Assembly (NCBI GenBank): GCA_019358935.1
Contig: JAHHIK010000167.1
Coordinates: forward strand, 1 to 11,899
DNA length: 11,899 nucleotides
Reading direction: 5' to 3'
Source: Tolypothrix carrinoi HA7290-LM1
GTDB lineage: Bacteria; Cyanobacteriota; Cyanobacteriia; Cyanobacteriales; Nostocaceae
Shown here: positions 4,781-11,502 of the stretch, in pieces
Numbering within the stretch: position 1 is the stretch's first letter
Layout of the letters: the number at the start of each line of letters is the position of its first letter
Notes under the pieces: model-generated
What the model saw: the letters and a program-made list of their open reading frames with translations, nothing else
Told to the model about the DNA's origin: nothing
Databases searched by the model: none
Translations under genes and position numbers: made by a program

Positions 4781-4910
4781 ATGGGGCATTGGGCATTGGG
4801 CATCGGGCAATGGGCATTAGTAATTAATAATTGTCCCCCTTGTCTCCCTTGTCTCCCTGCCCCCTGCCCCCTGCCCCCTGCCCCCTGCCCCATTCCCCAT
4901 TCCCCATTAC
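4781..4910. repeat. STRR-type mosaic (GGGCATT, TTGTCTCCC, CCCCTGC, CCCCATT units) between convergent genes
   Basis: Tandem 7- and 9-mers are directly visible. The GGGCA and TGCCC tracts are mutually complementary. Confidence 0.92.
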
Positions 4911-9902: not shown

Positions 9903-10175
9903 ATGACTGTAAGGTTTATTTTAAGTGATTATGTTGAGCAAGCGATCGCACAAGCGGTTTACGACAAATTAGAAGATGGAACTTTGCCCTTGAGAATTCC
10001 CGAATGTAAGGGAGTAGTCGCCTTTGGTTTGACTTTGCGCGAGTGTGAAGATGAGTTACGCTCAACACTGGAAGACTGGATTTTGCTTGGGTTGAAATTG
10101 GGACATTCTTTACCAGTAATTGATAATATTGACCTTAATAAGGAGCCGACCCTTGAGCCGATGGACACCCTGTAA
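9903..10175 (+). CDS. hicB: HicB-family antitoxin, short form without a C-terminal DNA-binding domain
   Basis: 90 aa; LEDGT...IPECKGVVAFGLTLRECEDELRSTLEDWI...LP fits the partial RNase H-like HicB fold. Overlaps the downstream hicA-like gene. Confidence 0.8.
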   Translation: MTVRFILSDYVEQAIAQAVYDKLEDGTLPLRIPECKGVVAFGLTLRECEDELRSTLEDWILLGLKLGHSLPVIDNIDLNKEPTLEPMDTL

Positions 10176-10383
10176 GCGTCGGGATTTTGTGCAAAAATTG
10201 CGACTGCTAGGCAATGATTGTCCTTTTTATGGAACTAAGCATCAGTTTATGATTTACGCGGAATATCGCTTAACTATTCCCTCTAATGATGAGTATTCTG
10301 TACCGCAGCTGCGGATGATGGTTCGGGAAATTGAGGTAATTCTGGAACGGGAAATTACACTTGAAGAATGGAATAGTCTTTAA
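10153..10383 (+). CDS. hicA: HicA-family mRNA interferase toxin
   Basis: TTG start at 10153 with AAGGAG RBS at 10140-10145; 76 aa MSRWTPCKRRDFVQKLRLLG...GTKHQFM...LTIP...PQLRMMVREI. The conserved His is present. Overlaps hicB by 23 bp. Confidence 0.78.
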   Translation: MSRWTPCKRRDFVQKLRLLGNDCPFYGTKHQFMIYAEYRLTIPSNDEYSVPQLRMMVREIEVILEREITLEEWNSL

Positions 10384-10409
10384 GGTATTCGGTTTGTATG
10401 TTTATTTTA

Positions 10410-10475
10410 AATATAATGCGCGATCGCATTGCAGACTCATGCGATCGCATGAGTGTGGTTTAATAATTTTAGGTG
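10410..10475 (+). repeat. HIP1-anchored direct repeat, copy A
   Basis: 10439..10475 matches 11224..11260 at 33/37 nt, and 10410..10422 matches 11198..11210 at 12/13 nt. Confidence 0.85.
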
Positions 10476-10542
10476 TAGTTAAGTTTGATGGCTTAATGAA
10501 TTTTCACAGCACTCATGCGATCGACCGGGTTAGCTTCAAGCT

Positions 10543-10674
10543 AATTCATAATTATTAATTCATAATTCATAATTAAAAAGGCTTTGTACAAGCTGTTTGT
10601 ATCACGCAGTCCTGTTTCAGGTAGGGTTTAAATCCCCATCACCAAACATAATTATGAATTATAAATTATGAATT
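10543..10674. repeat. MITE-like dispersed element: inverted heptamer arms (AATTCAT)n ... (ATGAATT)n around a core of about 75 bp
   Basis: The left arm (10543-10574) and right arm (about 10649-10674) are reverse-complementary tandem heptamers. Confidence 0.7.
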
Positions 10675-10707
10675 TTTAAAGGCATACCCGGTTTTTTGAC
10701 GTTTTAC

Positions 10708-10869
10708 CTACCGCAGGAGGTAGAAGCAATCTTCACGGCGACCACCCCCGCGATAAGTACAATCACTCATTGCATTAGGTAAGTCATAGCTGGGTGATTG
10801 GTAGGCATCTGCTAGCGCTGGCATCGTAGAGGCGATCGCGTTAATCAACAAAACTGCTAAAATTTTCAT
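10708..10869 (-). CDS. Small secreted peptide (53 aa) with PatX/PatS-like RGxGR motif: MKILAVLLINAIASTMPALADAYQSPSYDLPNAMSDCTYRGGGRREDCFYLLR
   Basis: Manual translation from ATG 10869 to TAG 10708-10710. MK + hydrophobic core + PALA cleavage motif, and a C-terminal C-TYRGGGRRED-C. It is shorter than any ORF listed in the track. Confidence 0.65.
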   Translation of the reverse strand: MKILAVLLINAIASTMPALADAYQSPSYDLPNAMSDCTYRGGGRREDCFYLLR

Positions 10870-11197
10870 TGGTTTAGCTACTCGGATATTTAATTCATCA
10901 GGATTAGTCAGCTAATACCGGGTGCTTTCTCAAAACTTGTTCAGTCTTAAACTTTGGCTAATAGCAGTTTGGTGCGGTTGAACAGGTCGCAAGCGCGATA
11001 ATTAAAAAAATCAGCATTTTTTTTGAGCAAGAAAATATTCACACCTGCTACGAATTGCTGCTGTAAATGTTCATCACAGCAATCAAAGTTAGTAAACCAA
11101 AAAGTTCACCCATCATAGCGATCGCCCTTCGCTTAAGTCTTTTTTTAAGTACGATCGTGCCTGGTGGTACGCGAGATTTTATGAAAAAAAATATACG

Positions 11198-11260
11198 AAT
11201 GTAATGCGCGGCACAGCAGCAAAATGCGATCGCATGAGCGTGCTTTAATCCTTTTAGGTG
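11198..11260 (+). repeat. HIP1-anchored direct repeat, copy B
   Basis: AATGTAATGCGCG-N13-ATGCGATCGCATGAGCGTGCTTTAATCCTTTTAGGTG; matches copy A at 10410..10475. Confidence 0.85.
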
Positions 11261-11271
11261 GAAAAGTGACA

Positions 11272-11502
11272 AGGAACACCATCATTCAACCTCAGAAGTT
11301 GATAATTCAAGCTTTGAGGTTCATCATCCGAGTTCTGAAGCTGAAAGTTGAGCTTCTGAAGCTGAAAGTTGAGCTTCTGAAGCTGAAAGTTGAGCTTCTG
11401 AACATGAAAGTTGAGCTTCTGAAGCTGAAAGTTGAGCTTCAACACTGCAAAATCCGAGTTGAGAACTTCATCGTTGAGGCTATGACGTTGAATTTTACTG
11501 CT
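11272..11502. repeat. 21-bp tandem array: 5 near-identical core units CTGAAGCTGAAAGTTGAGCTT (11335..11439) with 3 degenerate in-phase units on each side
   Basis: Units start at 11272, 11293, 11314, 11335, 11356, 11377, 11398, 11419, 11440, 11461 and 11482. Confidence 0.92.

Follow-up and report, generated by a model that had tools for sequence, protein, structure and literature searches.

Heterocyst patterning is a textbook bacterial activator-inhibitor system, and to our knowledge its known inhibitors, PatS, HetN, and PatX, all carry RG(S/T)GR. PatS (a cytoplasmic peptide of 13–17 aa, NF047415) lacks a signal peptide and carries its (E)RGSGR at or close to the C-terminus, and HetN, which carries RGSGR in a reductase-like sequence, is a long enzyme-like protein (PMC7761841). 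In the structure of the HetR hood with PatS6 (PMC4649674), binding is through main-chain bonds and two arginines, with the Ser contributing one extra hydrogen bond. The ligand is a free hexapeptide whose C-terminal carboxylate lies close to HetR R223, and HetR E254 is among the residues gripping its N-terminus in the solved complex (PMC4649674). PatX (Asl2332 in Nostoc/Anabaena PCC 7120; NF047413, "heterocyst-inhibiting protein PatX") is small and has an N-terminal Sec-type signal, and the maturation and readout of the exported peptide were worked out only in 2025 (PMC12756182). That source uses a Sec/SPI signal peptide and the absence of a transmembrane domain as a criterion for PatX, and describes a peptide that is exported and then matured outside the cytosol by PatP, a Peptidase_S13 according to its supplement table. 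Full-length PatX lacking the signal did not bind HetR in a two-hybrid assay there, and therefore processing would be required (PMC12756182). The promoters of patS and patX contain a DIF1-type TCCGGA element (PMC7761841; PMC7377430).

The locus that we compare with these systems lies on an 11,899-nucleotide stretch of Tolypothrix carrinoi HA7290-LM1 DNA, called the window here, which is the whole of contig G000:C167 (G000 being this genome, 7.96 Mb and 99.65% complete). A sequence-only reading of the window had pointed to an unannotated 53-residue ORF, referred to here as ORF53, and the frame is indeed intact from ATG to TAG over 53 codons, with the translation MKILAVLLINAIASTMPALADAYQSPSYDLPNAMSDCTYRGGGRREDCFYLLR; its orthologues are intact in 7 genomes. 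The signal peptide and 33-residue mature part in that reading are likewise predicted here: the N-terminus has one Lys and a 12-residue hydrophobic stretch of mean Kyte-Doolittle 2.5, n-, h-, and c-like regions are recognized by a simple script, and the −3/−1 rule places an A-L-A/D site after residue 20. AlphaFold2, run with the family alignment, gives a sole helix at residues 3–14, thus N-terminal only, with the rest at low confidence (mean pLDDT 58.3, pTM 0.25). There are exactly two cysteines, C37 and C48, and they lie around T-Y-R-G-G-G-R-R-E-D as had been claimed. The coordinates of these and the surrounding features are collected in Table 1. The best ESM Atlas scores with ORF53 (0.80–0.81) are in the noise range, and no Pfam family matches in a set used without PF28278, the Pfam assignment precomputed for PatX proteins; the genome's own PatX likewise gives 0 matches with that set. 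Near-identical proteins at NCBI, in Tolypothrichaceae, Hassallia, and Plectonema radiosum records, are named "hypothetical protein".

Table 1. Features of the ORF53 locus, in window coordinates
Feature	Position	Strand	Basis
ORF53 gene	10708..10869	(-)	intact frame; TAG stop at 10708-10710
Predicted Sec-type signal peptide, residues 1-20 MKILAVLLINAIASTMPALA, A-L-A/D cleavage-type site	10810..10869	(-)	hydrophobicity and -3/-1 rule script
Predicted exported part, 33 residues (DAYQ...FYLLR)	10711..10809	(-)	from predicted cleavage site
Cys37-Cys48 loop CTYRGGGRREDC, disulfide predicted	10726..10761	(-)	invariant motif, low pN/pS
YRGGGRRE, extended PatX-type core	10732..10755	(-)	profile comparison and six-frame pattern count
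Non-coding leader/promoter block, conserved	10870..11106	(-)	88% mean column identity, 7 genomes
Promoter-like -35 ATTACA / -10 TAAAAT	11176..11205	(-)	consensus match only; partly conserved in closest relatives
Conserved ~33 nt past stop codon; homology block stops there	10675..10707	(-)	alignment

A protein search of 41 related genomes finds full-length, stop-free orthologues at 68–100% identity in 7 genomes of the genus (G000 included), all of which keep the frame, the ATG, the stop position, and the loop. The single indel among them, +2 codons in L007, is in frame. The same search returns weaker paralogues in G003 and G009, and a profile search gives 4–5 family matches in each of these two genomes. 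When 201 genomes of the family were searched with the profile, ORF53 relatives were present in 7/7 sampled genus members besides G000, and nothing convincing was seen among the other 193 genomes; matches in G125, G164, and G211 (E 0.002–0.008) were rejected as spurious, the signal-plus-loop architecture being absent or stops lying inside. At the level of the order, a degenerate nucleotide pattern encoding C-x-[YH]-R-G-x-x-R-R-E-x-C occurs in G000 alone of 401 genomes, a sample that held no second genome of the genus, and a reversed control pattern gave 0 matches. The homologue search that the sequence-only reading had proposed returns a frame and Cys pair conserved within the genus, and a motif present in 0/400 other genomes of the order. 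Among 1.84 billion protein cluster representatives, 10 proteins reach E ≤ 0.001 in a profile search; those named by their source are hypothetical proteins, and the single organism on record is Hassallia. On these comparisons ORF53 is a real coding gene, restricted to one genus of filamentous, N2-fixing cyanobacteria, for a small peptide with predicted Sec export.

Alignment of 13 family members reveals where the constraint lies. All 13/13 sequences keep the motif D-C-x-[YH]-R-G-x-x-R-[RK]-E-x-C, the Cys pair included, and the invariant columns are I3, P17, D36, C37, R40, G41, R44, E46, and C48, with R or K at position 45 and Y or H at position 39; the MKIL... start is present in 11/13. The dN/dS check that had been called for gives 0.5–1.8 for the whole gene, and pN/pS over the 7 orthologues (Nei-Gojobori) is lowest in the loop (13 codons), at 0.17, against 0.66 in the signal, 1.45 in the middle part, and 0.95 in the tail. 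The dN of ORF53 is above that of neighboring genes. Overall the peptide evolves fast, and only the loop is under strong constraint, with purifying selection acting on it. Because the cysteines and the flanking D and E are invariant, the alignment suggests that the selected entity is a closed loop rather than a released hexapeptide. Core positions 3–4 are variable in the family, reading GG, AG, AS, or GS in the orthologue clade and SD, GE, GD, or DS in paralogues, and the pentapeptides found among the relatives of ORF53 include RGAGR, RGASR, RGGSR, RGSDR, RGGER, RGGDR, and RGDSR.

Several relatives have features of their own. P0008 and P0011 (also P0006 and P0010) contain a second PatS-like stretch, E-R-G-[ST]-G-T-R or G-S-G-T-R, shortly before the Cys loop, which hints at a two-motif ancestry (compare the two-motif PatX forms in L052, L055, and L064). 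Among P0010 (276 aa), P0014 (227 aa), and P0012 (100 aa), two long forms join an N-terminal domain and a hydrophobic segment to the C-terminal loop, with no match in Pfam, and one paralogue reads into a DDE transposase fragment and was probably disrupted by insertion.

In G000, G001, and G004 the neighbors of ORF53 are clpC and a gene for a PEP-CTERM protein, and DNA alignment finds the same flank in G009, G010, and G008. The claim that the gene sits in an accessory region holds only in part: synteny within the genus is kept in 6/7 ortholog-bearing genomes (G006 has the upstream flank only), and tblastn of ORF53 against plasmid and phage collections gave no match at E ≤ 1. Between ORF53 and the PEP-CTERM gene, G000 and G009 have a HicB/HicA-like pair that G001 does not; in the window it consists of a HicB-like ORF (UPF0150, 86.6 bits) overlapping a HicA-sized ORF at 9903–10383 (+), and it looks like an inserted toxin-antitoxin pair. 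Tandem repeats occur in the window at 508–710, 11333–11440, 2307–2478, and 4784–4907, with a 21-nt unit in 9.7 and 5.1 copies and heptamers in several arrays, some of them in intergenic spacers beside genes.

Upstream of the ATG lies a conserved block of ~237 nt, and conservation reaches about 11242 in close relatives. The block has a 7-bp inverted repeat, ATTGCTG...CAGCAAT, and shows no codon periodicity; it is probably a leader or promoter. Two mini-ORFs in it (22 and 19 codons) were rejected as genes, since their changes are mostly replacements and one is without a start codon in G001 (alignment by eye), and a terminator-like hairpin at 11117–11133 (+) was set aside because it is not conserved in G004 and G006, again by eye. 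A structured RNA in the block is disfavored by RNAalifold, which predicts 62 pairs with 0 compensatory changes and a covariation term of +1.51, and Rfam finds nothing near gathering score on 10400–11400.

These data bear on the proposal that the ORF is incidental and untranslated, with the whole conserved block of ~570 nt (about 10675–11242) acting as an RNA or regulatory element. Such an element would account for the upstream 237 nt varying no more than the ORF does (25% versus 35% variable columns), for the nearly even distribution of variable ORF columns over the codon positions (19/15/21), and for a dS in ORF53 of 0.03–0.07, below the 0.11–0.37 of neighboring genes in identical genome pairs, though the counts are tiny. 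It does not sit well with the paralogues at other loci, whose DNA is dissimilar and which do not share the upstream block, yet which keep the signal peptide, the loop, and the stop position, nor with a loop whose changes are synonymous with few replacements, nor with the RNAalifold and Rfam results. We regard an untranslated element as quite improbable.

How close, then, is the encoded peptide to PatX? Both are small, PatX with an N-terminal Sec-type signal and ORF53 with a predicted one, and both have a C-proximal core of the form [HY]-R-G-x-G-R-[RK]-[ED]. In six-frame translation of the genome (15.9 million residues), [HY]RG[SGTA]GR[RK][ED] occurs twice against 0.01 expected, as HRGSGRRE in PatX and as YRGGGRRE in ORF53. 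When the ORF53 family is aligned to PatX by hhalign, the probability is 92.9% and the E value 3.8e-7, over 15 columns only, around the core. At the same time, ORF53 has no match at E ≤ 10 to any NCBIfam family, neither NF047413 nor the PatS model NF047415, and is absent from the genome-wide matches to the PatX model at E ≤ 1.

The genome has a canonical patX on a separate contig (G000:C142:4317-4559), which scores 101.9 bits against the NF047413 cutoff of 30, and an above-cutoff patX is found in 10/10 genomes of the genus and in 27/41 relatives searched, whereas ORF53 belongs to one genus. Thus, despite the exported-peptide architecture and core motif that would recommend it, the idea that ORF53 is this genome's patX orthologue is refuted, and its membership in the PatX family was rejected on the same absence of a model match beside so strong a canonical score. 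The PatX likeness put forward in the sequence-only reading holds in part: the signal-type N-terminus, the C-proximal [H/Y]RGxGRR, and the likeness in the profile comparison stand, but ORF53 has no NF047413 match and no TCCGGA element, and its relatives vary at core positions 3–4.

The differences from PatX extend beyond the model score. PatX cores are flanked by P-[HY] before and [RK]-[ED]-L after, and ORF53 has neither the Pro/Lys-rich spacer nor the L-M-x-Y tail of PatX. Its core is held between two invariant cysteines, a bracketing found in 0 of the best 120 PatX representatives. Among the best 120 of 322 PatX matches (cluster representatives), positions 3–4 of the core are S-G or G-G, with RGSGR in 117 and RGGGR in 3, whereas the relatives of ORF53 vary there. 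The Gly at the Ser/Thr position, noted earlier as the departure of ORF53 from PatX, turns out to be a natural PatX allele as well: YRGGGRRD occurs in 3 of the best 120 representatives, one of them an NCBI-named PatX of Dendronalium, so that YRGGGRR(E/D) is common to ORF53 and the PatX alleles of a Dendronalium-type lineage. In G024, YRGGGRRD is the core of the sole PatX above cutoff, which lies about 11.5 kb from hetR. These sequences suggest that Ser/Thr at position 3 of the PatX core is not obligatory; our literature search found no paper pairing "RGGGR" with "heterocyst". PatX orthologues of this lineage with YRGGGRRD are found at L057:1468-1689 (-) (G024:C23) and in proteins P0094, P0120, and P0134.

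Compared with PatS and HetN, ORF53 has an RGxGR-type pentapeptide with both arginines and with Gly in place of Ser. Unlike PatS, it has 53 residues, a signal-type N-terminus, and 9 residues past RGGGR. A further short ORF was seen at G000:C69:4566-4721 (+) (L023:4566-4721); it encodes 51 aa (MQILAALL...) with a hydrophobic N-terminus, a Pro/Glu-rich spacer, and HRGGGRR, matches the PatX model weakly (14.2 bits), and among 41 genomes is found only in G000 and G009 (90%), with a fragment in G010.

The regulatory context also differs from that of patX. The genome's own patX has TCCGGA 58–63 nt upstream of its ATG, and no TCCGGA lies within 7.8 kb of ORF53, the only window copies being at 1393 and 2896. 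Neither an NtcA-type GTAN8TAC nor a HetR-site-like palindrome was found at ORF53. The distance between patX and hetR is about 11–13 kb in G011, G013, G014, and G024; in G006 about 445 kb separate the ORF53 orthologue from hetR, both on one contig, and in G000 ORF53 and hetR are on different contigs.

Taken on architecture and core, ORF53 may be a cysteine-looped variant of the PatX-type exported peptides confined to one genus, a description that we adopt tentatively and at somewhat less than even odds. That estimate also covers our preferred reading of its function, in which ORF53 would act in the PatX-PatP-HetR signaling route as a variant or competing ligand. The peptide would be exported by Sec and its signal removed after A-L-A20, and the C37–C48 disulfide would close in the periplasm, leaving a ring that would offer a PatX-type site to the route by which PatX is matured and taken up. 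From there, either the PatX-maturing peptidase route would cut the loop to give a YRGGGR-type peptide, whose two arginines would bind it to the HetR hood, or the closed loop would tie up the peptidase or the uptake pathway, thereby modulating PatX signaling. The first option has a structural cost, as the ligand seen with HetR is a free hexapeptide (PMC4649674), so that the ring of ORF53 would have to be cut at two sites.

Present in the same genome are hetR on contig C71 (G000:C71:36756-37652), the canonical patX, one PatP-type S13 peptidase gene on contig C58 (G000:C58:7523-8818), and a patS-like ORF of 21 codons, MTKFENDCDERGSGRFDQPSI, at G000:C1:179170-179235 (-), which has six residues past RGSGR and scores 22.8 bits against NF047415, under the cutoff of 30. 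The HetR contact residues R223, E253, D256, D270, and D278 are the same in each of 21 HetR sequences, that of this genome included. Residues 252–256 of HetR (L073:1501-2397) read L-E-T-M-D in 5/5 genus sequences aligned, versus L-E-E-L-D in most other genera; the HetR of G023 likewise has T254. Counted for the HetR route, beside the invariant contact residues, is the PatX-type core that is unique in the genome to PatX and ORF53; counted against it are the missing DIF1-type, NtcA, and HetR-site motifs, the variability of core positions 3–4, and a similarity of 15 columns.

Much of what weakens the HetR route fits a peptide with a target of its own. According to this alternative, ORF53 is an exported, disulfide-looped mini-peptide with a HetR-unrelated target, for instance a signal outside the cell or in the periplasm, or a peptide used in competition or defense, and the likeness to the PatX core goes back to a remote common ancestor or to convergence, with no function shared. 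It would explain why both cysteines, the D ahead of the first, and R-[RK]-E are kept throughout the family, yet the two residues that are fixed in the best 120 PatX representatives vary freely, and why the parts outside the loop evolve fast, with the middle at a pN/pS of 1.45 and dN above the neighbors. Several paralogues per genome, as in G003 and G009, are typical of diversifying secreted-peptide families; the surroundings of the paralogues are unrelated to development, and the regulatory motifs of the patS/patX type were not found near ORF53. It leaves aside, however, that the eight-residue core is confined in the genome to PatX and ORF53 and corresponds to a natural PatX allele, and no receptor, transporter, or modifying enzyme is a constant neighbor. 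We give this own-target explanation serious weight, as a possibility that also remains below an even chance, close behind the preferred reading.

One candidate receptor did emerge from the neighborhoods. A gene for a 695-aa NB-ARC + TPR (STAND) protein is present at L070:7256-9343 (+) in G001, at L069:10501-12585 (-) in G006, and in L004 in G010. Firmicutes have TPR-receptor/pro-peptide cassettes, and by analogy with their layout ORF53 might be the peptide half of a receptor pair with this upstream protein. In G001 and G006 the genes are 87–92% identical and lie 414–626 nt upstream on the same strand, and the 3′ end of the gene is upstream in G010 also. Still, the adjacency holds in 3/7 ortholog-bearing genomes only, G000 has no orthologue (the best relative, at 51% identity, is elsewhere in the genome), such genes are very numerous in these genomes, and a cytoplasmic receptor would call for re-import of the peptide. 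A pairing of this kind therefore seems very improbable.

Returning to the PatX-PatP-HetR route, a more specific form of it makes the ring itself the active element. Bowman-Birk and SFTI-1 type protease inhibitors use disulfide-closed loops that mimic a substrate. ORF53 resembles them in having a short Cys-to-Cys ring with basic, substrate-like residues, which in its case correspond to the PatX processing site; it differs in ring size, there is no kinship of sequence or fold, and the enzyme targeted would belong to the S13 peptidases rather than to the trypsin-like ones. By this logic ORF53 could be a disulfide-caged PatX mimic, either a poorly cleavable decoy for PatP or uptake, or a redox-gated pro-morphogen that would be opened for release, though we consider such caging unlikely. 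As a decoy, the ring would tune or antagonize the maturation of the HetR-inhibiting morphogen. If true, the caged mimic would give bacterial patterning circuits of the Turing type their first extracellular antagonist or gate.

What sets the family apart is a combination: the processing and recognition core of PatX is kept and clamped in a cysteine loop, and the two "untouchable" residues in its middle drift. The YRGGGR PatX of the Dendronalium-type lineage already suggests that Ser/Thr is dispensable at position 3. If ORF53 is unrelated to HetR, it would be an ordinary orphan secreted peptide of one genus. If it is HetR-linked, the family would widen the sequence rules for HetR ligands, or would add a layer, in the form of a decoy, a competitor, or a redox gate, on the periplasmic maturation of the signal.
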